64,000 nucleotides of DNA from a virus. The stretch covers positions 16,405 to 80,404 of the IMG/VR virus record IMGVR_UViG_3300025133_000063, one strand, 5' to 3'. The translations under genes were made by a program, and so were the position numbers. Shown here in pieces: positions 8,212 to 51,662 of this stretch (positions are counted from its first letter, which is position 1; each line of letters begins with the position of its first letter). The notes under the pieces are model-generated. The model was given only the letters and a program-made list of their open reading frames with translations. It had not been told where the DNA came from and searched no databases.

Positions 8212-8223
8212 GAAAAGTATTAA

Positions 8224-9758: not shown

Positions 9759-9761
9759 AAA

Positions 9762-33934: not shown

Positions 33935-33973
33935 TGCCAATATAATATTTAAAGCAGTATAAAGGAACCAACA

Positions 33974-34261: not shown

Positions 34262-34277
34262 GCTTTAGGGCTAATTT

Positions 34278-35111
34278 ATGTCATATGGTAATACACCTCT
34301 TATAAAAATTTCTGATGGGATTTATGGAAAACTTGAAGCATATAATCCAACAGGTTCAGTTAAAGATAGACTGATCAAGTTTCTTATTGAAAAAGAAGTT
34401 TCTAATAAGAAAATAAATTCTGACACGGTGTTCTGTGAGGCTACATCTGGAAATACTGGAATAGCCCTTGCTTCGGCTGCTGCCTCCTTTGGTGTTATTT
34501 GTAGGATATATATGCCTGCAAACATGTCAAAGGAACGTGTGGATATGATGAGTGCCTTCGGTGCTAAAATTATAAAGGTTCCTGATAATGATTTTGAAGA
34601 AGCCATACGACAACGCGATATATTTTTAAATAAAAACAAAAATTCTTGGTCGCCAATGCAGTTTAGCAATCCAAATAATATTGATTGTCATTTTTCTACT
34701 ACTGCTCCAGAAATTCATAAACAAGTCGCTAAGAAATGGTCGGCATTTATTCATGGTTCTGGTACCGGTGGAACAATCGCCGGCGTTAAGAAATATATTG
34801 ATAGCTTATCACTACCAACAAAGGTCTGTCTAGTTGTTCCTGCCGAGGAAAAACATGGAATTCAAGGAATTGGCGATGGTCAAGATTTTTTAGCAACACC
34901 AAGTGAGTATGACGACATTTATATTATAAGAACTGAAGATGCAATTACACGATCAAAACAATTTGCAAAATCCAGCGGCTATTTAGTAGGCATCAGTTCA
35001 GGGGCAAATATACTTGCTGCTGAATTGTGGAAGAAAAAAAATAAACCTGATGGAGATATTATTACTATATTGGCCGATAGAGGTGAACGTTATATGTCAA
35101 TTTATAGTTAA
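34278..35111 (+). CDS. Cysteine synthase family PLP enzyme (CysK/CysM-like)
   Basis: GNTPL, KLE..NPTGSVKDR, EATSGNTG, GTGGT, HGIQGIG, GISSGAN, DRGERY. Confidence 0.92.
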   Translation: MSYGNTPLIKISDGIYGKLEAYNPTGSVKDRLIKFLIEKEVSNKKINSDTVFCEATSGNTGIALASAAASFGVICRIYMPANMSKERVDMMSAFGAKIIKVPDNDFEEAIRQRDIFLNKNKNSWSPMQFSNPNNIDCHFSTTAPEIHKQVAKKWSAFIHGSGTGGTIAGVKKYIDSLSLPTKVCLVVPAEEKHGIQGIGDGQDFLATPSEYDDIYIIRTEDAITRSKQFAKSSGYLVGISSGANILAAELWKKKNKPDGDIITILADRGERYMSIYS

Positions 35112-35137
35112 ATGAATATTTAAATACAGAGGTTTTT

Positions 35138-35506
35138 GTGTTAGAATATTCTATGCCATTTTTTTATGAAGACAGTAATGTTCCAGCCGTGCTGTCAAAA
35201 ATCTCCCCAATTGAAATCGGCGCCATTACATTGGGGCCATTTGTTTTTTCTAGAGGGAAAATAAGTGAATCAACACGTATACACGAAACAATACACTGGC
35301 AACAATATATTGAGACAGGGATAATTGGTTTTCTTGTCTTATATTTATTGTTTTGGATAATAGGTTTATTCAAATATCGGAGTGGTGTATTGGCTTATCG
35401 TAATATGCCATTTGAGCATGAAGCATATAAACACCAAGATGATGTATCATATTTGTTTAACAGATCACGTTATGAGTGGTGTCGATTAGGATATTACAAT
35501 GAATGA
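35138..35506 (+). CDS. Small HEXXH protein with a membrane segment
   Basis: AITLG, RIHETIHWQQ, PFEHEAY. Confidence 0.6.
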   Translation: MLEYSMPFFYEDSNVPAVLSKISPIEIGAITLGPFVFSRGKISESTRIHETIHWQQYIETGIIGFLVLYLLFWIIGLFKYRSGVLAYRNMPFEHEAYKHQDDVSYLFNRSRYEWCRLGYYNE

Positions 35507-36950
35507 ATTAACGTTAAGACACTATATTAGAGAAGCTCTTGTATTAGATGCCGGTGCCGCTGGAACAGCCAGCTTAGACATACCAGATGGTATTAAAAAT
35601 ATAGATATAATGGATATAGTCACCGCAGAAATAGCCAAAGGTGATCCTACCGGTAAGAGAATGCAGCAAATTTTAGCATTTAATGAAATGGTTTACAATA
35701 TTGCTATGGAAGGTGGAAATAAAAATGCATGGCAAGCAATTGCCGAAAAAATGTTGGCTTATTGGGGTTATAATGTTGAAGACCAAACAGGCGCCGATGC
35801 AACAGGAATAACTGTTTTTTACGATGTTGAGAAAGACAATATATACTATTCAGTAAAATCATCGTTTAAATCAGGTGCTAACAGCTATAGGGCTGCTACA
35901 TCAAGCTCCAATGTTAAAATTCAGTCTATTTGTGCACTTATTATTAAGGAGCCTGAAAAGAACGTATTGGGTAATATTGGGTGTTTTTGTAACAAGAAGA
36001 ACCCTATCATAGGGTGGGGACAAGTTACTGCTCCAATATCAAGAGAAGCAGTGATAAAGAATATTTTGTCTATTGTTTCTAGTGATAATGATTTAGCAAA
36101 AAGATTTATCGATGCAACAGAAAACAAACCATCTTCTTCCATTGCTGATAAAATTATTAGTGATATTAAAAATTATTTTGCCTCGGCCGGCTTAACACCA
36201 GCAGATGGTCGTATGGGCTTAAGCCCTATGGCTGCAGTTCTTGGTGATATAAATGAAAAAGAAATAGGATCTCTTACCCTTGTAGATCCAGTTGAGCTTT
36301 TTGAAAAAACATTGGGTTCAGGTATAAAAGATGGTGTTCGTTCAGATGGCACTAAGGTTGCTCCTGAAGAGGATAGATCTGACTTTTTAAGAAGAATGAG
36401 ATCTGTCGCTAGAACGTTAAGTAGCGTTGAGATGGAAGATGTTATAGCGGCGGCTATAGGAATGTTGACATCTGCTAAGCCTGATGCACCATTGGAGGAA
36501 ACCTTAAGACAATTTACTCCTTCTACACAAGCTTATCTTAGAGAGCATTTTAAAATAAATGAATCAAGATTATTAAAAAAATATATCCGAAGTTTACTTG
36601 AATGTGGTGAAGAACCAGGGCAAACTTTACAACCTCTTATGGATCCCTTATTTAATCTTCGCGAAATAGTAAAAGAGCTAACTCTTCTAGAAGATCATAT
36701 GAATAATCCGTCAAAACAATGTCCGGATTGTATTAACAAACATTTAATGAAGTGTGAGGCCTTGTCTGAAGAGGCTATTTCTTTAGATGGTGATAACCAG
36801 TACCCATTTATTTCCAGTGTACCACAGGTTATTAGAGGGTGGCATAAGGCCGTATTAGATAACGATGTTATACCTCCAGCTGTTCCAGCTGAGATGAGAA
36901 GATTTAGAAAAATGATTATGCCACATGTGGCCAATAAATTTGAGGTTTAG
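35499..36950 (+). CDS. Leader type I polyprotein (two domains separated by an internal leader)
   Basis: N-terminal LRHYIREAL; internal NESRLLKKYIRSLLE; C-terminal domain with LLEDH...CPDC..KH. Confidence 0.7.
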   Translation: MNELTLRHYIREALVLDAGAAGTASLDIPDGIKNIDIMDIVTAEIAKGDPTGKRMQQILAFNEMVYNIAMEGGNKNAWQAIAEKMLAYWGYNVEDQTGADATGITVFYDVEKDNIYYSVKSSFKSGANSYRAATSSSNVKIQSICALIIKEPEKNVLGNIGCFCNKKNPIIGWGQVTAPISREAVIKNILSIVSSDNDLAKRFIDATENKPSSSIADKIISDIKNYFASAGLTPADGRMGLSPMAAVLGDINEKEIGSLTLVDPVELFEKTLGSGIKDGVRSDGTKVAPEEDRSDFLRRMRSVARTLSSVEMEDVIAAAIGMLTSAKPDAPLEETLRQFTPSTQAYLREHFKINESRLLKKYIRSLLECGEEPGQTLQPLMDPLFNLREIVKELTLLEDHMNNPSKQCPDCINKHLMKCEALSEEAISLDGDNQYPFISSVPQVIRGWHKAVLDNDVIPPAVPAEMRRFRKMIMPHVANKFEV

Positions 36951-36957
36951 TATAGCA

Positions 36958-36996
36958 ATGAAAATTACTAAAACAAAAAAGAGGATTTTAAAATGA
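36958..36996 (+). other. 12-codon leader-only micro-ORF (MKITKTKKRILK*), probable cassette scar
   Basis: ATGAAAATTACTAAAACA resembles the type II leader start; its TGA overlaps the ATG at 36993. Confidence 0.55.
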
Positions 36997-37385
36997 AAAT
37001 CACAAAGAGACAGCTACGAAGAATTATTAGAGAAGCTTTTACAACGGTGTCTGATGAAGAATTTGACAGGGACACCTTTGCAGACTATAGGGGTGGACTA
37101 CGAGATTTAGTTCCATCAGATCCAAAGCGCCCATGGGGATCATATGCTGGTGTTGGTGATGAGACATATTCTGATACTATTGTGATGAGTCCAAATGGAG
37201 ACTCAGTCTTGGTTGATGGTCTAGAAACTTATATACAAGATGTACCCTCACAATTACACCATACTTCAGGTTTTGAAATGAGTAAGACCGATGCAGATAA
37301 TTTAATATTCGCCCTTGAAACTCAGGAACAAGATGGTTATATAGAGCTTGGTGTCGAATACAAAAATGGAAAATGGAGTTGGTAA
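36993..37385 (+). CDS. Leader type II cargo protein, function unknown
   Basis: MKITKRQLRRIIRE. Confidence 0.75.
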   Translation: MKITKRQLRRIIREAFTTVSDEEFDRDTFADYRGGLRDLVPSDPKRPWGSYAGVGDETYSDTIVMSPNGDSVLVDGLETYIQDVPSQLHHTSGFEMSKTDADNLIFALETQEQDGYIELGVEYKNGKWSW

Positions 37386-37762
37386 TGAGAATTACAAAGA
37401 GACAACTACGAAAAATTATTAGAGAAGTTAGCGACTGGTATGATGACGAAAACGAGACGCTTGCCGACAAAAAATTTCGTGACTCCTATGAGAGTGAAAA
37501 ACGGCCCCGCGATGATTTACGAAATCGAGTACATCAATACTTGATTGATAAAAAGTTTTTCAAAGGACGTAATCTCAATGGCCGGCCACAGATCGAGATA
37601 TTCTGGGGACCACCTGAAGGACCAGATGTCCCAAAAGGTGCAGGATATACAAATCCCGCCCATGATTTTCTAAAATCAGCAGTTGAATCCGGTGACATTG
37701 ACTGGGCCACATGGGAAGAAATTGAGCCTATCTGGCGAGAAATTGACAGATCAATTAACTGA
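37385..37762 (+). CDS. Leader type II cargo protein, function unknown
   Basis: MRITKRQLRKIIRE; TAATG coupling. Confidence 0.75.
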   Translation: MRITKRQLRKIIREVSDWYDDENETLADKKFRDSYESEKRPRDDLRNRVHQYLIDKKFFKGRNLNGRPQIEIFWGPPEGPDVPKGAGYTNPAHDFLKSAVESGDIDWATWEEIEPIWREIDRSIN

Positions 37763-37782
37763 CATTTAAAAAGGAGATAACA

Positions 37783-38739
37783 ATGAAAATTACAAAAAGA
37801 CAACTTAGAAGAATCATTAGAGAAACTGGCCGGCCCGAACACGATGCCGAAGCCCGCGGCATGGTGGCTTCATACCGTCAAGGTTACAATGATGCCTATC
37901 GCGGACCAGGATATAAAAAACGTGGCAATCGCGAATATCTTCGAGGGTACCAACAGGGTGTTGCTGACGTCGAACAAGGTAAGCCCCCACCGGACGGCTT
38001 CCGGCCAGCCCGGCGCATTAGGGAAGCCGAAGGCTCTACCAAGAAATACGATGATGACTCTGCGCTTAAGGGCGGGCAAAGCAAACTTCCTGATGCCCTT
38101 CAAAAAGGGATCATTGATAAGACAGTTGATGACCGTGAAGAGCGTGAAGAAGAAGAGAGAGAAGAGAAGAATGAATCCGTACAAATTATAAAGCGACAGC
38201 TTAGAAGAACTATTCGCGAAATGATGAGGGGTCCAGCTGCTGAGATGGCTGCAGCCGCTGCAGAGACCGGTGCAGCCGGTATGGCACATCGCCGTGATGG
38301 CCTCGGTAAAAATATCACCGACGTTGACTTTCCAATTATCGTAGGTTACGAAGGTAAGTCGGAGATTGCATATAATCAGGATGAGCTGGACGACATATTG
38401 GATTATGTTGCTCCTACCCATGGCAGTTCTGGAATTCCATACAGCTTAGATTCTATTTCTGATTTAGAACCACACTCTGTTCCTGTAGGTGTTGGAATAG
38501 AGCAATTGTCTGCTGGAAAGAAAATAAAGATTACAAAAAGTCATTTAAAAAGAATTATTCAAGAAACAGTATTACGTGAAAATTTAAACAGTGCTATTGA
38601 AAAAGCACTAACAATGTCAGACACTAAATCTATTAATGTTGTAATAGAAAAAGTAAAAGAGATTGTTGGTGATCAATATAATGATGAACAAATTGCAATT
38701 GCTGTTGAAGATAGCTTTGATAACGCCATGGGAATATAA
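37783..38739 (+). CDS. Leader type II polyprotein (three or more leader copies)
   Basis: MKITKRQLRRIIRE, NESVQIIKRQLRRTIRE, KIKITKSHLKRIIQE. Confidence 0.75.
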   Translation: MKITKRQLRRIIRETGRPEHDAEARGMVASYRQGYNDAYRGPGYKKRGNREYLRGYQQGVADVEQGKPPPDGFRPARRIREAEGSTKKYDDDSALKGGQSKLPDALQKGIIDKTVDDREEREEEEREEKNESVQIIKRQLRRTIREMMRGPAAEMAAAAAETGAAGMAHRRDGLGKNITDVDFPIIVGYEGKSEIAYNQDELDDILDYVAPTHGSSGIPYSLDSISDLEPHSVPVGVGIEQLSAGKKIKITKSHLKRIIQETVLRENLNSAIEKALTMSDTKSINVVIEKVKEIVGDQYNDEQIAIAVEDSFDNAMGI

Positions 38740-38775
38740 AAAGTAAGATATATTTTGAACCTAACGGAAACTAAA

Positions 38776-39339
38776 GTGAACATTATTCGTGAATATATAA
38801 GAGAGCTTCTTGTTGAAGATTTAGCTAAGCGTCAAACTATGGTTATAGAACTGATAACTGAAGAAGACAATTCAGCAGGTCCAGGGTTTAAATACATTCA
38901 CCGTGGAATGAAGATTGATATAGGTAGTGCACCTCTCGCCTCACAGATAAGAAAAGTAGCACAAAAGAAATCAGCCGGTATAAGTGAGCGCGAAGCTGGT
39001 GCTTTTATTATGGCCAAGTTGAAAAACGAAGAAATCGGTGAATCTTGGACAACAAATAGAGATGTAGCTTCAAACTTTGCAGATGTTTGGGAGGCAACCA
39101 ATCGAGGCAGCACTCTTCACGTGATGTTTACTGGCAAGATTCCAAATAATTTTGGTTATGATCCAACAATAACTGGTGAAGAGCCTGCGATGTTTGACGA
39201 TGAAAGTGAGGTTCGAATTCCAAAAGGCGAAGAAATAGAAATCTCTTCTGTTTCTGTTTTTATTGCTAGTAAGGCCAGCGGCAAAAATTGGATGAAATTT
39301 CGCCCAGTCGCATTTAGCTTAGGCAAGGTAAGAGCATGA
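38776..39339 (+). CDS. Leader type I plus ADP-ribosyltransferase-like (R-S-E) domain
   Basis: VNIIREYIRELLVE; YIHRG...ESWTTNRDVASNFA...ESEVRI. Confidence 0.7.
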   Translation: MNIIREYIRELLVEDLAKRQTMVIELITEEDNSAGPGFKYIHRGMKIDIGSAPLASQIRKVAQKKSAGISEREAGAFIMAKLKNEEIGESWTTNRDVASNFADVWEATNRGSTLHVMFTGKIPNNFGYDPTITGEEPAMFDDESEVRIPKGEEIEISSVSVFIASKASGKNWMKFRPVAFSLGKVRA

Positions 39340-40127
39340 ACCTACTCCGCGAATACATAAGAGAGCTGCTAGCAGAAGACGCCATGGGCTTTGTCCACGA
39401 TCTTGCAGCTACATCAGAAGAGTTTGGTGAAGAAGGCGAAATGTTCTTTGGTGGTAATCCCGGAAAAGGCGGAGGCAAGGCAATTAAGCGCGCATTCAAT
39501 GCAAATGCTGATCACCAATGGTTGGCAACACTAGACACTGTCCATTGGACCGGTGAGATTTACAATATGGAAGGGCTTGTTGGAAAAGGAAAGGACGAAC
39601 TTTCTGCAACAATGACGCTTCCAGGCGAAGATTTTGATTGGCAGCTTTATTATGGATTATGGATAAAGGGCCGCATAACCTTAGCAGCAAATGATCAAGA
39701 CGCGTTATATACAGGTCACTATTCGACAGGTACTCCAGACGAGAAACAAGCACATATAGATAAATCTTCTGGAAGAAACAAGCTGCCATCCGTCTCAAAA
39801 GATTATAGTCGTTACGGACAACTTAAACGTGGGAACGAATATGCCGAAAGGACGGCGAAGAAAATTCCATATCTTTTAGACCAGTCTATGTGGAATCCTT
39901 CTGGGAATAATAACGAAGCACTGGTCGACAATTGGAAACCTGTTGGAATAATCCTAACGAAATTCGACGAGATAGATATCGTTTCAGGATTGGGGTATGT
40001 TGAGGGCACCAAAGAAGATATTGAAGAATTTACGCTTGGTGTGACGAAACAAATTCTATTAACGGCCCTTGCGTTTGGTGTACCAGTTTATGATACAGAG
40101 CGAGAGTTATTATGGAGCCCGGAATGA
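39336..40127 (+). CDS. Leader type I plus unknown domain (possibly ART-like)
   Basis: MNLLREYIRELLAE; VHW...ELSA...NEALV spacing. Confidence 0.65.
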   Translation: MNLLREYIRELLAEDAMGFVHDLAATSEEFGEEGEMFFGGNPGKGGGKAIKRAFNANADHQWLATLDTVHWTGEIYNMEGLVGKGKDELSATMTLPGEDFDWQLYYGLWIKGRITLAANDQDALYTGHYSTGTPDEKQAHIDKSSGRNKLPSVSKDYSRYGQLKRGNEYAERTAKKIPYLLDQSMWNPSGNNNEALVDNWKPVGIILTKFDEIDIVSGLGYVEGTKEDIEEFTLGVTKQILLTALAFGVPVYDTERELLWSPE

Positions 40128-40633
40128 AATTCATGTCATTTCAGAGCTGGCTGGCACAAACAATAGCAGATGATGGTTGTTGTCAATCTGAAAACATATC
40201 ATATCTTTGGGCTGATCCGAATCAGGAAGATGTGCTGGATTATTTCGCCACTCAATATGATTTAAACACTATACGGATGGAAGACATTCAAGCTGCTGCC
40301 GATGAAATGTATCAGAAAACTCAGTCTGCCATAGCCTCTGATTTTCCAGATGAGATTCAAGTTTGGCGGTGTGGTGGATTAGCCGGTGATGTAACATCGG
40401 TGACGACTAACAAGAGAGTTGCTGATGGTGGGTGTAGCGGTGGTTATTATGGTGGCAAGGATGCCACCGTCACATCATATATGGTAAATCGTTCTGATGT
40501 TCTAGCTTCGGTTGAGCATCTCTGGCCCGCGGGCGATTTTGTGGAGGACGAACTCTTGGTCCGCCCCGGAGCACTCCGGCCAATGAAAGAATCTTTACTC
40601 CGTGAATACATAAGAGGGCTCCTAGAGGTTTAG
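40124..40633 (+). CDS. ART-like (R-S-E) domain with C-terminal type I leader
   Basis: VWRCG..VTSVTTNKRVA...EDELLV; ends MKESLLREYIRGLLEV. Confidence 0.7.
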   Translation: MKFMSFQSWLAQTIADDGCCQSENISYLWADPNQEDVLDYFATQYDLNTIRMEDIQAAADEMYQKTQSAIASDFPDEIQVWRCGGLAGDVTSVTTNKRVADGGCSGGYYGGKDATVTSYMVNRSDVLASVEHLWPAGDFVEDELLVRPGALRPMKESLLREYIRGLLEV

Positions 40634-40634
40634 A

Positions 40635-41252
40635 ATGAAATTACTTAGAAAATATATAAAGCAACTTTTAAAAGAAGAATATAACATTGAAAAAAACAAG
40701 TGGACACTTTTAGGACCTGACGATTTAAGACGTGATGACGTAATGCAACAATTATATGATATGACGTGTGAAACTTATGGTCCAATTGGTGGTCACCCAA
40801 AAATATCATGTCCTTTAGCATTAAATAAATACATGTATTGGATTGTCGCAGATATCGATGATGATCCAGAAATTGATGTTGGAATGTATGGAAAGCCAAC
40901 TGCTGCCGGCCATAAAATGGGTGGTGCAGCAAATGATGGTACTCCTCAAGCCGCACAGGCATATAAAGAAAAGTCCGCAGAATTACGTTCTGGTGGATCA
41001 ATAGATGGTGTTGGTAATTGGTATGGTGAAGTTTCCGGAAAGCCAGCGTACGCAATGTTATCAAGAGGGGCTCCGGCTATAGTAAATGAACAACAGGTCA
41101 AGGCACTATTAAAAGGCAAAGGTGTAATTTGGCATGGAATGCATCCTGATCCAGCTGCACCAGCTGTTTTTAAAAATAGCCCTGGATGGTATTCTAGAAA
41201 CTTAGGTGGTGTTCTTCATACAAAAATAATTGTTGGCTCACCAAAGGTTTAA
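40635..41252 (+). CDS. Leader type I cargo protein, function unknown
   Basis: MKLLRKYIKQLLKE. Confidence 0.7.
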   Translation: MKLLRKYIKQLLKEEYNIEKNKWTLLGPDDLRRDDVMQQLYDMTCETYGPIGGHPKISCPLALNKYMYWIVADIDDDPEIDVGMYGKPTAAGHKMGGAANDGTPQAAQAYKEKSAELRSGGSIDGVGNWYGEVSGKPAYAMLSRGAPAIVNEQQVKALLKGKGVIWHGMHPDPAAPAVFKNSPGWYSRNLGGVLHTKIIVGSPKV

Positions 41253-41254
41253 CA

Positions 41255-42256
41255 GTGCACTCCATTCTTTTAAAAAGTTATATTAATGAAGTAGCACTCA
41301 TAGATTATAACCATAAACAGATCAATGAAGCTCTTGAAATTAAAGAGCTCTTGCGTGATGTGGTTCGTACCGCTCTTGACGCTGGTGCTATAACATTGTC
41401 TGGAGGAATGGGTGGTGACACAGTTGTAGATATAATATTTGCCGTGGAGTCATCTAAAGAAATACTAAAGGCTGTTAATGATGCTATTAATTCGGCTAAT
41501 GAAATTGCCCAAGCACTGAAAGCGGCCATGGCGGCAAATATAAGCTCTGGCCCCGATTCGATTTATGCAGCAGTGGAGAACGTTATAGAAACAATTGTTG
41601 AAAATTCTGATTCTGCTACTGATACCATAGAAAATATGTCTTCTAAGGTTGAAGATCTTTTAAGCCGTTTGGCTGCATCTGTTGGCGATTGGGTCGCGAC
41701 TGTGTTACCTGATGATGCTGGACTTGGTGGTATATTAGTTCGCGAGACGCTTCAAGAAATTATAACAAAACTTGGTCAAAATGTTTTTGATTTTGCCAAA
41801 GGTGCATTTTCAAAATTACCTACACAAGCACAAAATTTTATAGCAAGTCCAGAAGCCATGGCTAATTTTCTTAATGAAATAGCAAATAAGATCGTTGTAC
41901 ATTTAAGTCCTGATGGTGAAAATAACGAGGCCAATGGTGGTTTTTTAGGAATGGCGTCAACAGCAACAAATATAGTTCAGGGTGATTATAGTAAGCTTGC
42001 AAAAGATAAAGCTGTATCATTTTTAAATGGTGATTTTAGAAAAATGATTCCTGTTGCAACACAAATTTTAAATAAACTTATTACGGCATTTTTTGGTGGT
42101 GTTGCCGTAGCACAAATATTGGCAAACTGGAATGAACGGGATGAAGATGAAGAGCAAAATGAAGAGCAAGAGAGCCAAGAAGAATCGCTAGTTCGTGACT
42201 GTATTAAACATATGCTTTATGAAAATGCAACATTAATAAATGGACATGTAAAGTGA
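41255..42256 (+). CDS. Amphipathic helical protein with N- and C-terminal type I-like leaders
   Basis: LLKSYINEVAL at the start; EESLVRDCIKHMLYE near the end. Confidence 0.65.
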   Translation: MHSILLKSYINEVALIDYNHKQINEALEIKELLRDVVRTALDAGAITLSGGMGGDTVVDIIFAVESSKEILKAVNDAINSANEIAQALKAAMAANISSGPDSIYAAVENVIETIVENSDSATDTIENMSSKVEDLLSRLAASVGDWVATVLPDDAGLGGILVRETLQEIITKLGQNVFDFAKGAFSKLPTQAQNFIASPEAMANFLNEIANKIVVHLSPDGENNEANGGFLGMASTATNIVQGDYSKLAKDKAVSFLNGDFRKMIPVATQILNKLITAFFGGVAVAQILANWNERDEDEEQNEEQESQEESLVRDCIKHMLYENATLINGHVK

Positions 42257-43116
42257 AGATATTATTTTTACATGGTTTAGAATCTCAGCCTGGAGGTTCA
42301 AAAGTTAAATATCTTCAAGGCTTAGGGCATACTGTTTTAAATCCTCTTTTACCAAAACATGATTTCGATGAGTCAGTTAAAATTGCACAAGCGCTTATAG
42401 ATAGCGAACATCCTGAAATTGTTGTTGGTTCTAGTCGAGGCGGCGCTGTAGCCATGAACATCAATGCTCAAGGTGCTAGACTAATCTTAATAGCTCCTGC
42501 ATGGAAGCGTTTTGGAAATTCTTCATCTATTCCGGTAAATACAACAATATTACATTGTAGAGACGATAAAATTGTACCATATAAAGATAGCGCTGAATTA
42601 GGTGTTAATTTAATGAGTTGTGGTGATGATCATAGAATGTCTGACAAATTGGCTTTGACGGCTCTTGGACAAGCAGTTGGCTTACAAAAAGATAAAAATA
42701 TGAAAACAGAAAATTTTCTTCGTAAATATATAAGAGAAACGTTGTGTGAATTTATAAATCAGCCGATTGGAACAGTGGATGGCGACGACCCTCGTCCCAC
42801 ACCATCAGAAGAAGAATTTGTTACTGGGCAGGATATTTTGGCTGGTTATATTGTTGTAAGTGATTCTCACGATAATATCATAGTAGGATACGCTCCAATA
42901 ACCCGTACTGATGGTCCTGATAGACCCTTCCTTGTAAGGACGACTGACACCAAATGGCTTATTCCCTTTGGTATGGTGAGGGCCTTATATCCTCAAGTGG
43001 AGGACACATTTAACTGGGTCGATTCAAAGGAAGACTGGCGAGATCTCGGTGTTGGATCTCGTGGAACGGTTGGAAATTTTTCATGGGAGTGGTTAGAAAA
43101 TGAACCTACTCCATGA
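42253..43116 (+). CDS. YqiA/YcfP-like alpha/beta hydrolase fused through an internal leader to an unknown domain
   Basis: FLHGLES, GSSRGG nucleophile elbow, D..VP, DDH; internal MKTENFLRKYIRETLCE. Confidence 0.8.
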   Translation: MKILFLHGLESQPGGSKVKYLQGLGHTVLNPLLPKHDFDESVKIAQALIDSEHPEIVVGSSRGGAVAMNINAQGARLILIAPAWKRFGNSSSIPVNTTILHCRDDKIVPYKDSAELGVNLMSCGDDHRMSDKLALTALGQAVGLQKDKNMKTENFLRKYIRETLCEFINQPIGTVDGDDPRPTPSEEEFVTGQDILAGYIVVSDSHDNIIVGYAPITRTDGPDRPFLVRTTDTKWLIPFGMVRALYPQVEDTFNWVDSKEDWRDLGVGSRGTVGNFSWEWLENEPTP

Positions 43117-44239
43117 ATACATAAGAGTTTTACTCGAGCAAGAGCAAGGATCGAAAGGCAGTCTTATTGTTGTCGACATTCAACCAGAGTACGAGAGCGG
43201 CACACTGTTCGATGTCGGTGATATGTTAAGAGCTGCAGCAGAAGATTATTCCAGAGTGTTATTCTTATTCAACGGTGAAGACACTCTTGGTATGGTTTCA
43301 GAATCTGCACTAAAGAACTTCTATTTTGAAAAGCTTGACTACGATGAAGAAGTGTTTGATGAATTACTATCTAAGTCAGAGTTTTTTGACAAAGGCTACG
43401 GCTTCTTTAGGGACGTCATGGATTCCGATGCTTGCTTTGACCGCAACCAGGTTGTGAAAATCGTCAAATATATGATCGATAAAGACATTCAAGATATTCG
43501 TGATCTTGAAGAAGAAGACATTGAAGTTATTGGGGTTAGTGAGCTGTTATTTGATGATCTTGAAGACTACGGATTCTGGGTTCCTGAACTATCTGATGAG
43601 TTGCCTAATTGGAACGGATCAGATCTTGTAGGTGGCGCCAGAAACGAATGTATGGCTGAAGTTGAGATACTCGGCGTAGCACAAGGGTTAAGCTTTAATC
43701 ACGTTGACAAGTTCATATATGAGGGCGACAATAGATATATAGAAACCTTGACAGAGGCTGCTACGTTTAAGCATAAGGGATCTACGGTTTATGGACACAA
43801 GATAGAAGACTTGCTCCGTAATCTTAAGAGGGGCGAAGGCATATATGAAGACGAAGGACTTGAAATGATAGAATTCCAGAAAGATTATCTGGAAGGCATG
43901 TCGAAGAAGCCGTCAGTCGAACTATACAGAGTAGTGTTTGCAAAGTCGATTGATGATGTCGATAGAAGTAATCTCGGGCATCACTATACAGACGACTATG
44001 ATTCGTTCACTTTGCAGATGATGGAATCTTTGTTATCTCAGGCGAGGCAGGAAAACCCTTCGCTTGAGCTGGAGGACGCTCGGATAGTAAAAGTAAGCGC
44101 CCCGGCAAATGCGATAGATTACGAAGAAGTTATGAGGACATGGTCATTATTCCCATATGAATATGAGATCACTCTAGGCGACACTAGCGGCGTAGAGATA
44201 CTTGACATAGACGATGCTTACGAAAGTAGCGAGAGATAA
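43100..44239 (+). CDS. Leader type I plus isochorismatase-like domain plus ART-like domain
   Basis: MNLLHEYIRVLLE; LIVVDIQP...VGGARNEC; LTE linker; LYRVV..LGHHYT...EYEITL. Confidence 0.65.
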   Translation: MNLLHEYIRVLLEQEQGSKGSLIVVDIQPEYESGTLFDVGDMLRAAAEDYSRVLFLFNGEDTLGMVSESALKNFYFEKLDYDEEVFDELLSKSEFFDKGYGFFRDVMDSDACFDRNQVVKIVKYMIDKDIQDIRDLEEEDIEVIGVSELLFDDLEDYGFWVPELSDELPNWNGSDLVGGARNECMAEVEILGVAQGLSFNHVDKFIYEGDNRYIETLTEAATFKHKGSTVYGHKIEDLLRNLKRGEGIYEDEGLEMIEFQKDYLEGMSKKPSVELYRVVFAKSIDDVDRSNLGHHYTDDYDSFTLQMMESLLSQARQENPSLELEDARIVKVSAPANAIDYEEVMRTWSLFPYEYEITLGDTSGVEILDIDDAYESSER

Positions 44240-44241
44240 AT

Positions 44242-44820
44242 ATGAACCTACTCCGTGAATACATAAGAGAACTCCTCACTGAATCTGTCGATCCCAAAAT
44301 CATGTCAATGATTGATAAACTCGAGGAACTAGAAGGTTTTGTTGAGATCATGCCAGACAGAGCAGTGATTATGATTAACAAAGTTGTTGGGGAAGATCGC
44401 TATCCGGTTCCACTCGGCCATGTGGCGTGGGGAGAAGGAAGGCTCGATGGTCCATGCCTTGGAGCAAAAATAGTATCTTCATCCACTATGAAAATGGGTT
44501 TTGGTCCGCTTGCTTACGATGTTGCGATTGAGGTAACCGGCGGACTAACATCAGATCGAGATTCAGTTACGAAATATGCAAATGCTGTCTGGGATCGATA
44601 TATGAATGGTCGTCCTGATGTCCAAGTGCTACAAATGGATAATGATCGAAATCACCTAACTCCTGAAGACGAAGATAATTGTGAACAACGTTCCGCCAGA
44701 GTCGATTCAGGAGGATGGTCACCACCAGGCAGCTTTTGGGATTCTTCTTTGAGTAAGGTTTACAAAAAATCAGGCACTCCAGTCATGGATGAGTTGCGCC
44801 GAAGAGGGATGTTAGACTAA
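44242..44820 (+). CDS. Leader type I plus GNAT-like domain
   Basis: MNLLREYIRELLTE; GFGPLAYDVA...LTSDR.SV..YANAVWD. Confidence 0.6.
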   Translation: MNLLREYIRELLTESVDPKIMSMIDKLEELEGFVEIMPDRAVIMINKVVGEDRYPVPLGHVAWGEGRLDGPCLGAKIVSSSTMKMGFGPLAYDVAIEVTGGLTSDRDSVTKYANAVWDRYMNGRPDVQVLQMDNDRNHLTPEDEDNCEQRSARVDSGGWSPPGSFWDSSLSKVYKKSGTPVMDELRRRGMLD

Positions 44821-45179
44821 TGGAACTCATCCGCGAATACATAAGAGATTTGATAAAAGAATCGATAGCTATCGGCCAATGTTATCCTCACGCTGTTAAT
44901 ATGGCAAAAGATTCAAAAGTGTCAGATAGAAATGATCTGTCGAAATTCAAGGTAGTGCACGGTCGAGTTACAAACAAATGGAATGATAAGTCATTTGAAC
45001 ATGCATGGGTTGAAAAGGGTGATATGATATTTGATTGGCAAACCCATTCAACAAAACCAGACGGTGTTCCTCATGATGTATACTACGATATGTATCAGCC
45101 TGAGATCTACAAAGAATACACCGGTGCAGAAACAATAATGAACTGTGTCAATTCAGGACATGCAGGACCTTGGCGATGA
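44820..45179 (+). CDS. Leader type I plus transglutaminase/papain-like Cys-His-Asp domain
   Basis: MELIREYIRDLIKE; GQCY...VVHG...HAWVE...IFD. Confidence 0.65.
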   Translation: MELIREYIRDLIKESIAIGQCYPHAVNMAKDSKVSDRNDLSKFKVVHGRVTNKWNDKSFEHAWVEKGDMIFDWQTHSTKPDGVPHDVYYDMYQPEIYKEYTGAETIMNCVNSGHAGPWR

Positions 45180-45490
45180 AACTGTTACGTGAATACATAA
45201 GAGAGATGCTTAATGAACAAATAGACCTGCAGGCTGTTATAAATGATTTGGATAATCTTACTGCAGATGAGATCATGAAGCTGTGGCGTGCTGTCGCTAC
45301 TGCCAGTAGGAAGAAAGAAAAGGAGATAAAAGCCGACTTTAACAAAGGCGACAAAGTCGAATTCGACCACGATGGCGAGACAATCACTGGCACTGTCGCC
45401 CGGCGAGGTGGAAAGTTTGTGAGTGTTAATGTTCACGGGTACGGCTCGCCGTGGAAAAGAAATCCATCTAGCCTGAGAAAAATATCATGA
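45176..45490 (+). CDS. Leader type I plus small SH3-like domain
   Basis: MKLLREYIREMLNE; FNKGDKVEF...GTV...KFVSV...WK..PS.L. Confidence 0.65.
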   Translation: MKLLREYIREMLNEQIDLQAVINDLDNLTADEIMKLWRAVATASRKKEKEIKADFNKGDKVEFDHDGETITGTVARRGGKFVSVNVHGYGSPWKRNPSSLRKIS

Positions 45491-45993
45491 ACATTCTCCG
45501 CGAGTACATAAGAGAGCTATTGAGAGAAAAACGAAATACCGCCGGCACCTTTTATCACTTTAGTAATGAAAAGTTTGATGAATTTAGTCTCTCCAACGCG
45601 TCGGATAGCGCAATATGGGGGAAGGGAATTTATCTTTCTGACGACCCTGACGATTTGAGCGGCTGGGGGAAAGAAGACAGAAACCGAGGCTTCTTGTACA
45701 CAGTGGAGATAAAATCCGATCAGAAAAATATTATAGATATGACACAACCGATCCCTCCAGAAATATATGAAAGGATTGAGGCGCATCTTGAAAGACCTCT
45801 GTCAGACATAACCAAAGAGGATGGGATATTCCCTTTTAATACTTTAGATCGAAAATCTGGATCTGTGGCAAACGCAATGCGAGAAATGGGCTTTGAAGTT
45901 TTAAAGCACCCACCACCGGGTAGCCATAAGGGAAGCCATTATTTAGTCACCGAACCATCAGTTATAGGCGTTTTAGAGGTTCAACAACAATGA
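45487..45993 (+). CDS. Leader type I plus ART-like (H-Y class) domain
   Basis: MNILREYIRELLRE; FYHFS..FDEF...WGKGIYLS...LYTVEI...HYLV. Confidence 0.7.
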   Translation: MNILREYIRELLREKRNTAGTFYHFSNEKFDEFSLSNASDSAIWGKGIYLSDDPDDLSGWGKEDRNRGFLYTVEIKSDQKNIIDMTQPIPPEIYERIEAHLERPLSDITKEDGIFPFNTLDRKSGSVANAMREMGFEVLKHPPPGSHKGSHYLVTEPSVIGVLEVQQQ

Positions 45994-46529
45994 ACCTCCT
46001 ACGCGAATACATAAGAGAGCTGCTAGCTGAGGCTCCCACCCTTAACCACAAGGGGGATGAGAATTATTTCCGAGTTGAACTGGGAAGAATTGGATATGCC
46101 CAAGGTGCCCGACATCTTAGGTTCCAAGACTGTCAAGCTGACGTCGATAAAATCATGCAAACACCTGAGTACCTGGTTGCTAAAGAAAAATACGAAACCA
46201 CCAACACGACGAAGGACATGGTTGAAGATCCGGATTCTCCGAATGGGTTCAGGATGCAGAAAAAACCAGCAACATTCCGGCCACCGTTCTACGATGTAGC
46301 AAATGCATGGATCCACGATGAAGATAATCGTGGCAAAGGTCATGGTAAAGAAATCTATAAAGCATTCATAGACAAAGCCAGTGAGTATGCAAAAAGAAGC
46401 GGTGGTGTCTTTATCGGAGCACATCACTGCACAATAGGTTCAGGCACATCAGAAGCGGCAAAGCGGGTTTGGAAATCTATAACTAAAAACTACACATCAT
46501 CTGGTGATGTTATCTTTATAGGATTATGA
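45990..46529 (+). CDS. Leader type I plus GNAT acetyltransferase
   Basis: MNLLREYIRELLAE; acetyl-CoA motif A NRGKGHGKEIY; SEAAKRVW. Confidence 0.75.
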   Translation: MNLLREYIRELLAEAPTLNHKGDENYFRVELGRIGYAQGARHLRFQDCQADVDKIMQTPEYLVAKEKYETTNTTKDMVEDPDSPNGFRMQKKPATFRPPFYDVANAWIHDEDNRGKGHGKEIYKAFIDKASEYAKRSGGVFIGAHHCTIGSGTSEAAKRVWKSITKNYTSSGDVIFIGL

Positions 46530-46530
46530 A

Positions 46531-47892
46531 ATGAGCTTACTTCGTGAATACATAAGGTTGTTAAGTGAAAAACAAGTTCGTGATCAAAAAAAGAAACGTG
46601 TTCTTTATCACATTGGTCCACGCCCTGCAAAGCCTATGCCAATGTCTCGCCCTTATGCACAGTCCTGGCGCCGGTACTGGCTCGATCAAGGTGTGGAATC
46701 TGGAGTATTTTTCTCACCCAACCCAATTGACATAGCCCAGTATCATGGAATTAGTGGTGATGTTTATGCCTACAAAATTCCAGAGTGGGTAATTGCAAAA
46801 GCAGGCGGAGTCCACAGATATGATCATGGCTCTGAAGTGTTGATTTCTGCCGATGTATGGCAAGAAGCTGGAGATGAAATAGAGTTTCTTGGAAAGAGCA
46901 TGCCGGAAAAAGAGCTTTGGGAGAAGATTGAATCTCTTGGAGCTGAACCATTAAGAAGATCTGCCGGAAGCCGACCAGGCTGGATGAGTGATGACGAATG
47001 GGAAAAAGCAAGTATGAACAAAACCACACAGAGTCATATATCTGGACTAAGATCTACTAAGCATCTAAAAAACGCCATCCGCATGATGAAGCCCAATGAG
47101 CGTGACGAAGCTCTTACCGCGTTTGAGACTATTGATGTCCTTAGAAAAAAAGATTATGAGATAATAGATATGATCAAGAGCTATATGAATGAGTCATCTC
47201 TTCGGGGTTACATAAAAGAGGTGTTGGAAAGTCAACCTGAAGAGCCAGATATGACTCAATACGTTGACGATCTAGAAAATGAGATTTTTACGATGCTTTT
47301 TCAAAAGAGCACATATGACTATCTTCAGTCTCAGGATGAAGGTATAGAATCGACGATGATCATGAATACATCTCTGTTTGATGAATATAATAATATAAAC
47401 GAAGTACATTTAGGTATCCTGGTGAACGATTCAGAGTCCGCGGACGTCGAAGCTGCATATGTTTGTGCCCCAGAGGAGAGGAATAAGTCGAACCTTGTGT
47501 TGAGTATCAATATTCCTAGAAACTATCCCCAGGTTGAGGGTTTCCAAGATTGGCTCAGTGCGGAGCTAGCCGATAGTTTATCTCACGAAATCCAGCACAG
47601 TTGTGATACATCCGAAATGTTGGCTGCCGATATTCCGGAAGGTGAGGCGAAATGGGAGAGTTTGGAAAACATAGAAAAGTACTATGCTTCCGAAGCCGAA
47701 ACAAGAGGTCACATCGCCGGTATGATGGGAAGAGCTCGGAGGACTGAACAAGATCCTGAGAAGCTTTTGCAACATGACGTTGAAACTGTGATGATGAATG
47801 CTCTCGACAAAGGGTATACAAAACAGGAGATGATTCCCGTCGTTCAAAGAATATATGATAAGTGGTCTGAGAGATTGGGGGATCGAAAATGA
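46531..47892 (+). CDS. Leader type I polyprotein: ART-like domain, internal leader, HEXXH domain
   Basis: MSLLREYIRLLSE; LYHIG..GVFFS..SEVLI; MNESSLRGYIKEVLES; SHEIQH...YY..EAETRGH. Confidence 0.7.
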   Translation: MSLLREYIRLLSEKQVRDQKKKRVLYHIGPRPAKPMPMSRPYAQSWRRYWLDQGVESGVFFSPNPIDIAQYHGISGDVYAYKIPEWVIAKAGGVHRYDHGSEVLISADVWQEAGDEIEFLGKSMPEKELWEKIESLGAEPLRRSAGSRPGWMSDDEWEKASMNKTTQSHISGLRSTKHLKNAIRMMKPNERDEALTAFETIDVLRKKDYEIIDMIKSYMNESSLRGYIKEVLESQPEEPDMTQYVDDLENEIFTMLFQKSTYDYLQSQDEGIESTMIMNTSLFDEYNNINEVHLGILVNDSESADVEAAYVCAPEERNKSNLVLSINIPRNYPQVEGFQDWLSAELADSLSHEIQHSCDTSEMLAADIPEGEAKWESLENIEKYYASEAETRGHIAGMMGRARRTEQDPEKLLQHDVETVMMNALDKGYTKQEMIPVVQRIYDKWSERLGDRK

Positions 47893-48563
47893 AATACTTA
47901 CGACAATACATAAGAGAAGTATTAGAAACTTCATTACCGGTGCAGCCTAATTCACAGATATTTTGTGACATGGATGGAGTATTAGTAGATTTTGAAACAT
48001 CAGTTGTTACTTTTATAAATCACTTACTAGATGGTGGTAGTATTCCAAATGTTAAAAGAAGCAAAGGGCATTTTTACCGTCTTAATTTAATACATAAAGA
48101 AATGGGAAAAGATTGGAGGCTACAGACTGGATCCGACTTAAATCTTCCGGTAATACGATCATTTATGTTTATTAGCATCGCCGCAAATCCCGGTGCAATA
48201 TTTGCTTCAATGAAACCACTTCAAGATGGTGTAGATCAACTTTGGCCGGCTTTAAATTCTACAGATTTAACAGTGAATATTTTATCTGCTCCAATCAATG
48301 GAAACAAAAGCGCACCAATGTCCGCTGCCGAGGGAAAAACAAGCTGGGTAGAGCACTGGTTAAAACCACAACCAAACAATATTATTATTACTCCAGCTCG
48401 CCAAAAGCCAGAATACGCCAACACTAATGGTACGCCAAATATACTTATAGATGATAAAGCATCAACTATTGATTCGTGGAACGCTGCTGGTGGAATTGGA
48501 ATTCTTCATACACCTGGAAATAGTACAAAAACGATAACGGTTTTAAAAGAATTACTGAAATGA
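47889..48563 (+). CDS. Leader type I plus HAD 5'(3')-deoxyribonucleotidase-like domain
   Basis: MKYLRQYIREVLE; FCDMDGVLVDF, ILSAP, GK..W, LIDDK...W.AAGG.GILH. Confidence 0.85.
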   Translation: MKYLRQYIREVLETSLPVQPNSQIFCDMDGVLVDFETSVVTFINHLLDGGSIPNVKRSKGHFYRLNLIHKEMGKDWRLQTGSDLNLPVIRSFMFISIAANPGAIFASMKPLQDGVDQLWPALNSTDLTVNILSAPINGNKSAPMSAAEGKTSWVEHWLKPQPNNIIITPARQKPEYANTNGTPNILIDDKASTIDSWNAAGGIGILHTPGNSTKTITVLKELLK

Positions 48564-49963
48564 AAATTACAAGAAGACAACTAAGAAGAATTATTAAGGA
48601 AGAATTATACCACAATTCTTTTAGTAATTTAGATCTTTCTAGAAATCACCTATCTTTTCGAGGAGATTCACGGCTTTTTGAAAGATCATATATTACTGGA
48701 ACATTAGGTCTTTCTATTCCTCTTCAGGAATCTTATCCATATTCACCATCGTTTGAAAAGCGCATTATTCATGAGCAGACACTCTACGAAAACTGGTGGG
48801 GAGACGATTGGTATCTTTTTGAGGGTGCTTATGGAGAATTATTAAAAACACATTCGGCAGAAGCTCTATTGGAGAAATTGCATGAAGGACCCATTCTTGA
48901 TTGGGGAAAAGGTCTTTTATCTACTGCGGTTCAGAAAGGAAAAGAGGTAGTTAAGAAAGGTATTGAAGCTGGTAAAGAAGCCCTTATGAGTGCAGAAGAG
49001 GGCATCAAAAAATTTGGTAAGGATGCATGGAATATTTTAAGTGCAATGTGGTTAACCATGAAAGGTGGCGCAAGTGAAATTGGATCATGGGTTAAGTCTG
49101 TAGTTCGATTAGGAATCGGCTCTATGTTGGAAAGCATTGAGAAAGCACTCAAGTTTCTAGCAACAAAATTACCAGAATGGAAGATGCCCACGTTCGGTGA
49201 ATATGCTCAAAAGGGTCTTGACTTTATAAATTCTTTAAAAGGCAAACTAGAGAACCTCGATGGATGGAAGGGTGTTATTACAGTCTCGGGGATTGCGATT
49301 GGATTGAAGTGGCTTTGGAATAAGGTAGGCAAATGGATAGACGAATTAAAAGAGAAGGTGGGTGGTAAATTCACTGAGACATCGGAAATTGCATCAAACG
49401 TAGCAGGTGGTATCGATGCTGCTAAAGAATGGATAAAAGAAACTGCAAAAGAAAAGCTTGCGGCTATAGGCGGCAACGCCTTTAAGAAAATTATGGGAGT
49501 GTTGGCTTCCGTATCATCAGGTGTAAAGCCGTGGTGGGATGCAGCTGTAAAAGTAGCCGGCGGAGTAGAATTAATTATTTCTTCCCTTGGAGATGCAGCC
49601 AGTCGCTTTATGCGAATAAACAAACCAAAAGAAGTTCAGACGGAAAATATAAAAATTACAAGAAAACAACTTAGAAAAATTATTAGAGAAGTTTCAACTC
49701 CAACACTTCAACAATGGGCAAATCAACATAATTTACCTATAGACTTAGATCCGATTACTGGAGAAGAAGTTATACTCATTGATGATGAATTTGCAATGAG
49801 ACAAGGAATTCCGGACGGTGCCCAATGGAGTGTTGAGCGATCATATGATGATGATGGTTGGGTTGTATCAATCCCAAATTCTGATACACTAGGGTTTGAG
49901 GAAATTTCATATGGTGGCTTAGACGATATGGATGATATAGAAATGCAGGTTAGAGGTTATTAA
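48560..49963 (+). CDS. Leader type II polyprotein with a long amphipathic helical domain
   Basis: MKITRRQLRRIIKEE; internal TENIKITRKQLRKIIRE. Confidence 0.7.
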   Translation: MKITRRQLRRIIKEELYHNSFSNLDLSRNHLSFRGDSRLFERSYITGTLGLSIPLQESYPYSPSFEKRIIHEQTLYENWWGDDWYLFEGAYGELLKTHSAEALLEKLHEGPILDWGKGLLSTAVQKGKEVVKKGIEAGKEALMSAEEGIKKFGKDAWNILSAMWLTMKGGASEIGSWVKSVVRLGIGSMLESIEKALKFLATKLPEWKMPTFGEYAQKGLDFINSLKGKLENLDGWKGVITVSGIAIGLKWLWNKVGKWIDELKEKVGGKFTETSEIASNVAGGIDAAKEWIKETAKEKLAAIGGNAFKKIMGVLASVSSGVKPWWDAAVKVAGGVELIISSLGDAASRFMRINKPKEVQTENIKITRKQLRKIIREVSTPTLQQWANQHNLPIDLDPITGEEVILIDDEFAMRQGIPDGAQWSVERSYDDDGWVVSIPNSDTLGFEEISYGGLDDMDDIEMQVRGY

Positions 49964-50918: not shown

Positions 50919-51662
50919 ATGAAACACTTGTCTGAAAAATCAATTCTTAGAGAATATATTAGAAATTTGTTATTAGAATCTGCTTCTGCCCCAAAAGTTA
51001 TTTTCCTTGCAGGGGCTCCTGGATCTGGAAAGTCTACAGTAATTCAACGTTTAGGATTAGCCAATAAATTTGAGATAGTAAATCCTGATGATGCATATGA
51101 AGAAGCAAAAAGAAGGGACAATCTTCCATTTGACAAGACAGATATATTAGATAAATACAAGCCAATAAAAGATGAATACTTGGCCGCCATCGCAATAGAT
51201 GATCAAGAAACCATTAATAGATTAGAACCTGAATATTTGCGTTTGAAAGCACCTCTTTCTGCTGATGCAAAGGCGTTTAGTGCAGCAAGATCAGGGGCAA
51301 GTAAAAGAAAAAAGCAATTAGCGGTAGAAAATAAAGATTTTTTGGTTGATGGTACAGGTGGTAACTTTAACGAAATTAATTCTCAAATAAAAAAGTTACG
51401 CAACATTGGGTATAAAACGGCAATGATTTATATCGATATTGATTTGGAAACATCAATTGCCAGGAATATTGATAGAGGTAAAAGGGGTGGCAGAAGATTG
51501 ACCGACAGTGCTGTTGAAAGATCTCATTCAGGTGTCACCGCAAATAAAGAATTATATAAAGATTTGTTTGGAAAAAACTTTTTTTATATTGATGCTTCAC
51601 CGGCAGGTTATGAGAAAAGCATCAACAATGTAGCACAAGAAATAAAAGAATTTTTGAGATAA
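50919..51662 (+). CDS. Leader type I plus Zeta-toxin-like P-loop kinase
   Basis: ILREYIRNLLLE; AGAPGSGKST, VNPDD, VDGTG, RN..RG..GGR. Confidence 0.8.
   Translation: MKHLSEKSILREYIRNLLLESASAPKVIFLAGAPGSGKSTVIQRLGLANKFEIVNPDDAYEEAKRRDNLPFDKTDILDKYKPIKDEYLAAIAIDDQETINRLEPEYLRLKAPLSADAKAFSAARSGASKRKKQLAVENKDFLVDGTGGNFNEINSQIKKLRNIGYKTAMIYIDIDLETSIARNIDRGKRGGRRLTDSAVERSHSGVTANKELYKDLFGKNFFYIDASPAGYEKSINNVAQEIKEFLR

Follow-up and report, generated by a model that had tools for sequence, protein, structure and literature searches.

A tandem gene array with a common leader in a marine jumbo phage, and its leader-coding DNA as a probable place of cassette exchange

The cassette array

The 64,000-nucleotide stretch of DNA analysed here (the window; positions 16,405 to 80,404 of IMG/VR virus record IMGVR_UViG_3300025133_000063) contains a tandem array of about 15 genes that are mutually dissimilar save for a few paralogues, and that begin with a common short N-terminal leader. 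We refer to such a gene as a cassette and to the part behind its leader as the cargo; many of the cargos look enzyme-like. The leader reads M-N-L-L-R-E-Y-I-R-E-L-L-x-E (MNLLREYIRELLxE), and the DNA that encodes it, above all a core of 13 to 15 nt, GAATACATAAGAG(AG), is the sole sequence common to the cassettes. The original prediction, made from the DNA letters, had proposed that this leader DNA doubles as a short homology block at which cargo is swapped, added or deleted in frame, without an integrase.

The 13-nt core GAATACATAAGAG corresponds to leader nt 16–28, and its predicted repetition could be reproduced: 12 copies lie on the + strand between 38791 and 47916, of which seven are exact (39351, 40604, 43115, 44257, 44835, 45191 and 46005), three carry one mismatch (38791, 45502 and 47904) and two carry two (42724 and 46546). 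The positions first reported for the core were those of leader or gene starts, with the core itself lying 15 nt further downstream (21 nt in the case of 40583). When up to two mismatches were allowed, the window yielded 13 matches compared to 2.7 +/- 1.7 in shuffled sequence, where not one of 100 shuffles gave as many. Over their first 38 nt, the leaders at 39336 and 45990 indeed differ at only two positions.

The butt-joined arrangement of the genes was likewise confirmed, with seven ATGA overlaps, one TAATG overlap and otherwise spacers of +1 to +2 nt in the array, where intergenic spacing as a whole ranges from –17 to +2 nt. The cargo DNA had also been judged GC-richer than its surroundings by eye, and computation gave a GC content of 0.412–0.413 for the array (GC3 0.34) versus 0.356 for the rest of the window (GC3 0.24). 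The array comprises the following features, in window coordinates; here and below, G-numbered genomes are related IMG/VR jumbo-phage contigs, L-numbered sequences are metagenome contigs and X-numbered ones are other metagenome runs.

38755..39339, + strand: cassette A1; leader from 38776, core 38791-38803 with 1 mismatch; cargo with R-S-E-like motifs on reading by eye
39336..40127, + strand: cassette A2; core 39351-39363
40074..40620, + strand: island of 547 bp, 91% DNA-identical to G006; surroundings unalignable
40112..40633, + strand: cassette x3; without N-terminal leader, terminal orphan leader 40589-40633, core 40604-40616
40635..41252, + strand: cassette A4; divergent leader (MKLLRKYIKQLL)
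41255..42256, + strand: gene x5; leaderless, core-gene-like GC3 of 0.22
42253..43116, + strand: gene x6; alpha/beta-hydrolase-like N-terminal part (weak Pfam match), internal leader, then a second domain
42709-42750, + strand: internal leader of x6; core 42724-42736 with 2 mismatches
43100..44239, + strand: cassette A7; core 43115-43127, degenerate internal leader (RYIETL) at about 43733
44242..44820, + strand: cassette A8; core 44257-44269, most widespread cargo family
44820..45179, + strand: cassette A9; core 44835-44847
45176..45490, + strand: cassette A10; core 45191-45203
45487..45993, + strand: cassette A11; core 45502-45514 with 1 mismatch, weak ART-PolyVal Pfam match under the cut-off
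45990..46529, + strand: cassette A12; core 46005-46017
46531..47892, + strand: cassette A13; two-module fusion, N-terminal core 46546-46558 with 2 mismatches
47194-47235, + strand: internal leader of A13 (GGTTACATAAAAG); second module with HExxH motif
47889..48563, + strand: cassette A14; core 47904-47916 with 1 mismatch, core-gene-like GC3

Apart from the leaders at gene starts, additional leaders of this kind (A-type) are embedded in open reading frames (ORFs), namely at 36570, 42715, 47200 and, in degenerate form, about 43733, and an orphan copy forms the C-terminus of the x3 ORF (40589-40633). The tail of x3 thus consists of a full A-type leader, five codons and a stop, with the next gene's own leader starting one base later. 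On either side of the array are leaders of a second class, B (MKITKRQLRRIIRE), located at 36993, 37385, 37783 and 48560; further class B copies are internal and lie at 38164 (weaker), 38524 and 49649. The multi-leader ORFs of the window (35499, 37783, 42253, 46531 and 48560) look like cleavable polyproteins. The stop codon of gene 42253 sits inside the A7 leader (43100-43116), so that both ORFs overlap by 17 nt, because of an Arg-to-His change (CGT to CAT) in that leader. A2 has a conserved 3′ end (LWSPE plus the ATGA overlap) that constitutes a second type of junction.

Cassette order and junctions in related phages

The source record is an IMG/VR virus entry of 80.4 kb with a completeness estimate of 27%, encoding a DnaE-type polymerase and GroEL, and with a RecA homologue located immediately upstream of the window. 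Its closest relative, G001 (IMGVR_UViG_3300007513_000001), measures 293 kb and is closed via a 38-nt terminal overlap; 52 of the 76 ORFs of at least 120 aa in our record have homologues in G001, largely collinear and with a median identity of 49%. Marine and hydrothermal-vent metagenomes contain near-identical DNA. Among 50,697 phage records, neither megablast with the array nor tblastn with A2 returned a match.

Cassette order and content were compared among 10 related IMG/VR jumbo-phage contigs and 47 metagenome contigs retrieved with the A8 (44242) cargo. Order maps were based on leader-masked tblastn, as plain ORF clustering over-merged families through fusions and leaders. Every relative examined has a different cargo order: the window order (A1 A2 x3 A4 x5 x6 A7...A14) differs in each of G001 and G003–G009, with L011 and L036 too short to judge. 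The original prediction of shuffled cargo is therefore supported. Homologues of A1 (73–81% aa identity) occur at differing places in G001, G004, G006 and G009. In the metagenome contigs, orthologues of A8 (83–94% aa identity) have at least five different downstream neighbours (homologues of 44820, 45990, 39336 or 40112, or an A8 paralogue) and at least four different upstream ones (homologues of 45990 or 38755, the N-domain of 46531, or new genes). Logan contigs of other marine runs, for which joints with sides under 30 nt, uncovered parts and depth figures were excluded, join A8 to A2 (39336) and A8 to A12 (45990). The joint of 43127 to 44242 in run X5 is ambiguous, as the leader letters may fit both sites, and only its homology stop at 43127 was used.

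The genes around the array move as well. The flanking genes at 33122-35506 shift relative to the array when compared with G001: a PALP enzyme (34278) and its neighbour stand before the array in the window and after it in G001, and the homologue of 33122 is directly followed by a homologue of the 40635 cassette in G001 and G003. The relatives have GC contents of 0.39–0.51, all above that of this genome (0.364), and in each of them the array is GC-richer than its surroundings. This composition is consistent with phages of differing base composition drawing on and exchanging a common pool of cassettes.

The original prediction had further placed the breakpoints at the leaders. Excluding cases at contig ends, 73 of 138 homology-block ends fell within 30 nt of a leader Tyr codon, compared to 8.9% of random positions. 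Left block ends stack at the ATG, while right ends lie 7–11 nt past the Tyr codon, that is, at the end of the core. Block ends were also found at internal leaders rather than gene starts (40616, 43743 and 47218). More specifically, all six well-resolved non-collinear junctions (at least 70% identity on both sides) lie inside leaders, with the left block ending at leader nt 25–37, the right block starting at nt –6 to +10, and both blocks overlapping by 19–37 nt.

The clearest of the junctions is a clean hybrid leader in contig L089. Up to GGTTACATAA this contig follows the sequence around the internal leader of gene 46531; beyond that point, beginning with TACATAAGAG, it is approximately 100% identical to the A8 (44242) leader and cargo, which places the crossover within the TACATAA of the core. 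As a result, L089 (3329-4570) carries the N-module of 46531 fused in frame to the 44242 cargo through the hybrid leader. In L093 the switch occurs between leader nt 30 and 33. Islands of shared DNA behave correspondingly: the 91%-identity island between the window and G006 starts at the A2/x3 overlap and ends at the end of the leader core, beyond which the window continues with five codons and a stop and G006 with a 160-aa cargo. G002 and L011 share a cassette-sized island, from one leader's ATG to just beyond the next core. In G006 the x3 domain (95% aa identity) runs through the leader into the 160-aa cargo, forming a 343-aa ORF. As a separate observation, the C-terminal half of A7 (43781-44247) occurs on its own, at 96% identity and with unlike flanks, in contigs of three other marine runs, its left break lying about 45 nt past the degenerate leader RYIETL (43733).

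A statistical counterpart of these hybrids was obtained from leader pairs. Pairs of which only the upstream genes are orthologous (n=37) showed an identity of 0.75 in leader nt 4–15, compared to a baseline of 0.60 (permutation p=2e-4), and no excess in nt 31–42 (0.51 versus 0.52). Conversely, pairs of which only the cargos are orthologous (n=68) showed an identity of 0.63 versus 0.52 in nt 31–42 (p=2e-4) and a smaller excess in nt 4–15. Followed in 6-nt steps, the upstream- and cargo-linkage curves intersect in the interval of nt 19–36, which corresponds to the core. Variation in the leader's 5′ part thus goes with the upstream gene, and variation in its 3′ part with the cargo. The hybrid leaders, this flip in linkage and the in-frame fusion in L089 together support the proposal that the leader acts as a homology block across which cargo is swapped in frame. 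Neither outcome named beforehand as refuting it was observed, be it relatives with identical cargo order and content or breakpoints that bear no relation to leaders. The best explanation overall, which we regard as probable, is that the leader-coding DNA is the place of cassette exchange in an internal-protein-type locus that has become expanded, carried by an uncultivated marine jumbo phage (about 300 kb) from a lineage with T4-type heads.

Several points weigh against this explanation. Since the genes adjoin one another directly and each opens with a leader, block ends near leaders are partly expected by construction. In L088 the switch is placed at the ATG or upstream of it rather than in the core, and some homology boundaries (e.g. 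40074-40127 and 43781) lie away from canonical leaders. The decisive support comes from a few hybrid junctions and from a pairwise analysis with non-independent pairs. Finally, exact in-register homology between leaders is short (median 11 nt, maximum 26 nt) and falls below the usual minimum for RecA-type exchange, so that the agent of exchange can only be proposed.

Core codons, leader function and competing explanations

The core had been predicted to keep the synonymous codons TAC-ATA-AGA against the preference of the window, and outside the array TAT (0.83) and ATT (0.62) indeed dominate, with TAC at 0.32 and ATA at 0.45 in the array cargos of the window. Among 75 pooled A-type leaders from 11 genomes, the core codons were TAC in 57 of 74 cases for Tyr7, ATA in 61 of 71 for Ile8, AGA in 52 of 65 for Arg9 and GAG in 32 of 41 for Glu10, while the Leu codons, Arg5 (CGT/CGC) and Glu6 (GAA 42, GAG 22) varied. 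Four consecutive core codons are thus biased, and TAC, ATA and GAG are over-used relative to their background frequencies in the cargos of the sampled arrays, which were 0.42 (TAC), 0.33 (ATA) and 0.41 (GAG). Since many loci had been retrieved with a pattern containing the core, we repeated the test on 46 leaders not matching that pattern, a subset biased against the consensus, and found ATA in 32 of 42 cases (p=1e-8 against the background of 0.33) and TAC in 28 of 45 (p=0.009 against 0.42); GAG at Glu10, which was never part of the search pattern, was likewise in excess (p=3e-6). The biased TAC-ATA-AGA-GAG next to free flanking codons thus indicates that the core is conserved as DNA.

Leader identity within one genome (0.651) equals that between genomes (0.646), and intragenomic homogenisation is therefore not the cause of this conservation. 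Concerted evolution by intragenomic gene conversion was rejected on these values; that they give no sign of frequent leader-to-leader conversion inside one genome is also a point against leader-mediated exchange. The cause could instead be an advantage to cassettes with a usable handle, or a separate constraint on RNA or translation.

The latter is the strongest competing explanation, although we consider it unlikely as a whole. It holds that the synonymous sites of the core are kept for a reason such as a translational-regulator site past the start codon, avoidance of TATA-like promoters, or dependence on phage tRNAs for ATA and AGA, with recombination a mere by-product of the resulting identity. 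It would account for a bias that spans no more than four codons in a row, with saturation at the neighbouring synonymous sites, and that persists in genomes of 36–51% GC. The core starts at +16, a position within the ribosome's initiation footprint, and evolvability by itself is a weak selective force. Moreover, G001 encodes eight tRNAs (274609-279563 and 7607-9859), among which an Arg(TCT) and a CAT-anticodon tRNA that could read the AGA and ATA fixed in the core. However, no conserved RNA structure was predicted around the leaders, no antisense copy of the core exists elsewhere in this record or in G001, and internal leaders partly retain the core away from start codons (40604 and 47206). 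The explanation is in any case compatible with the evidence for shuffling, and alters only the reason for the conservation.

What the leader itself does is best read from phage T4. Both ipII and ipIII of T4 begin with MKTYQEFIAE, the first 33 nt being identical, and within this sequence residues 4 and 7 are involved in targeting, while processing by gp21 involves residues 8 and 10 (PMC9026906). The leader M-N-L-L-R-E-Y-I-R-E has E6, the aromatic residue 7, I8 and E10 in common with M-K-T-Y-Q-E-F-I-A-E, and it fits the gp21 cleavage pattern (L/I-x-E), with a second L-x-E further on. G001 encodes a T4-type head module, comprising Portal_T4, a Peptidase_S77 (gp21) and two Gp23 paralogues, and a search for prohead and protease genes detected S77, Portal_T4 and two Gp23 in G003 as well. 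Most likely, then, the leader serves as a capsid-targeting propeptide, as its pattern and the T4-type head genes of the relatives suggest. This reading has to be set against an agreement with T4 at only 5 of 10 positions, head genes that were not found in this record (a 27% fragment), and packaging and cleavage of the leader-tagged proteins that are themselves predictions from sequence. The Gp23-family capsid genes of G001 (176269-180150, corresponding to L081 4269-8150) stand in tandem, encode 632 and 629 aa and are identical over their first ~60 residues.

Given that limited agreement with T4, the leader might instead be another kind of N-terminal module, such as a signal for localisation or secretion, a helix that docks onto another machine, or a peptide with a regulatory role. 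The existence of a second leader class would be in keeping with this, and so would the cargos: a PHROGs search of 10 of them gave no family, and Pfam gave weak or no matches for most, with 45487 (weak ART-PolyVal) and 50919 (Zeta_toxin/P-loop kinase) as exceptions. These same two matches nevertheless resemble domains of injected polyvalent proteins, and the internal leader copies resemble cleavable polyprotein linkers. Together with the leader's T4-like length and pattern and the T4-type portal, S77 protease and gp23 of the relatives, this speaks against a function other than capsid targeting, which we regard as unlikely.

With respect to the junctions, it is improbable that the leader is a passive landmark, with illegitimate recombination occurring anywhere and selection retaining breaks at gene boundaries. 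Surviving gene-level rearrangements would then indeed end near a leader, as the genes abut, and the L088 junction and the boundaries outside canonical leaders are what such a process would leave. Yet the hybrid leaders switch in register inside or just past the core, junctions occur at the internal, non-boundary leaders at 47218, 40616 and 43743, linkage ties the leader's 5′ part to the gene before it, and neither junction scars nor variable spacers are seen.

It is very improbable, lastly, that the differences in order are assembly artefacts in which different phages were joined at a repeated leader: the relatives are all assembled contigs and leaders are repetitive, but exact shared runs are mostly 11–17 nt (2 of 78 pairs reach 20 nt; ~10 nt of microhomology at the L089 crossover), which lies below usual assembler k-mer sizes and so argues against chimeras, while the A8-A2 adjacency recurs in L098, L104 and run X4 and the A8-A9 adjacency in the window, G003, G004 and L104. 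Differences of 6–50% between orthologous cargos also indicate that they stem from different genomes, and G001 is a closed 293-kb assembly.

Proposed exchange, known systems and flanking leader genes

An exchange without an integrase, as originally predicted, fits the gene content of these phages. No Phage_integrase or Resolvase match was found in this record, the complete G001 or G003, and PF00589, the family of IntI-type tyrosine recombinases, gave no match in the same three, whereas the control search was positive in 14 of 14 control genomes. Inverted repeats of the attC kind were not found at the cassette boundaries, and the array has no excess of promoter-like sites (32 versus 43 expected) or terminator-like sites (11 versus 10). 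A RecA homologue is present in this record, G001 and G003. The agent of exchange is likely either a RecA-type recombinase of the phage, acting on short homology, or a switch of template in the course of replication. Short-homology, in-register crossovers between the leader ATG and approximately nt 35 would then replace, add or delete downstream cargo while frame and tag are kept, with no site-specific recombinase or attC-like site taking part. The leader would subsequently bring the cargo into the prohead core, where a gp21-type protease would cut after I-x-E or L-x-E.

More tentatively, the core may serve as the site at which a cassette system for injected effectors recombines, integron-like but without an integrase, and its synonymous sites may be held by selection at the level of the cassette. 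Cassettes bearing the handle would spread between co-infecting jumbo phages, those that lose it would become fixed or disappear, and the same handle would build and rebuild cleavable polyproteins. We regard this extension as possible, although we lean against it.

The closest known system is the internal-protein locus of the T-even phages, which is highly variable between related phages. There too, otherwise unrelated small proteins (IpI, IpII and IpIII) have a common N-terminal leader of about 10 aa that ends in I-x-E, the T4 leader is conserved as DNA (33 identical nt in ipII and ipIII), and the T4-type head comes with the gp21 protease, which is present in our relatives. Shuffling of such an 'IP palette' has been proposed for T-evens, without a mechanism (PMC4122927, citing Repoila 1994; PMC3012670; PMC12373910). 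The present locus differs from it by having around 15 tandem cassettes instead of 1–3, many of them enzyme-sized and some fused into multi-leader ORFs, by its second leader class, and by belonging to a DnaE-type seawater jumbo phage rather than a T-even. In addition, crossover points are here mapped onto the leader-coding DNA, while packaging is predicted.

Modular shuffling in T4-like phages is also mediated by PeSL repeats (Arbiol 2010, PMC2839356; Comeau 2014, PMC4122927). These resemble the leaders in being short repeats that flank accessory genes and act as sites of homologous exchange, with single genes inserted, deleted or replaced without a dedicated recombinase. PeSLs are, however, intergenic promoter-plus-terminator units of about 100 bp, and membership was rejected for an array without intergenic spacers or an excess of promoters or terminators. 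In contrast to PeSLs, the repeat here lies within coding sequence, and exchange therefore must be, and is, in frame. The likeness to integrons lies in the tandem arrangement of promoterless cassettes that share one orientation, contain unrelated genes, are each delimited by a recognisable repeat, and vary in order and content between relatives. Membership was again rejected, given the lack of an IntI-type recombinase and of attC inverted repeats; the repeat of this array is a translated leader and its exchange is apparently homology-driven.

Polyvalent proteins of phages and conjugative elements, reportedly described by Iyer and colleagues in 2017, offer a further parallel. They too are collections of effector-like domains (ART, zeta-toxin-like kinase, metallopeptidase-like) that are thought to be delivered along with the DNA and processed into pieces, whereas the present cargos are mostly separate genes with their own leader and only weak Pfam matches. 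Botstein/Susskind linker exchange, in which exchange points lie in short conserved sequences between modules and relatives are mosaic, describes what is found here. A full-text literature search with the leader strings returned no paper. New are the scale, the lineage (marine DnaE-type jumbo phages), the second leader class and the fusion ORFs with several leaders, as well as crossovers that map to a translated leader.

Injected internal proteins are a front line of phage counter-defence; Ip1, Ip2 and Ip3 of T4 act against GmrSD enzymes, each blocking a different one (PMC12373910). For internal-protein loci, of which the polymorphism was observed in 1994 (as cited in PMC4122927 and PMC3012670), the present data provide a concrete route by which the repertoire can be renewed, namely a translated tag that doubles as a crossover site of about 13 nt. 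This would allow any cargo to be exchanged, gained, lost or fused in frame and, as predicted, to remain addressed to the capsid. The system occurs widely among uncultivated jumbo phages of marine and hydrothermal-vent origin, its arrays offer a large catalogue of candidate injected effectors, and it points to a simple rule by which T4-type capsids could be loaded with foreign proteins.

Leaders of both classes also occur around the array:

35499..36950, + strand: gene c4; internal A-type leader 36564-36605
36993..38739, + strand: three B-leader genes; starts at 36993, 37373/37385 and 37783, internal copies at about 38164 and 38524
48560..49963, + strand: B-leader gene closing the array; internal B leader at 49649
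50919..51662, + strand: outlying A-leader gene A15; Zeta_toxin/P-loop kinase-like (Pfam E=1e-12), leader at residue 9

A15 is located outside the main array, behind a DNA-polymerase-exonuclease-like gene. The B leader is a 42-nt DNA block with approximately 78% DNA identity over the block between unrelated pairs. For this class the linkage test was underpowered, with only 3 and 2 informative pairs. G001 carries 12 B-leader genes in a separate cluster (B regions at 48.2-57 kb and 285-286 kb), and in four other metagenome runs dozens of contigs contain the B block with dissimilar sequence on either side.

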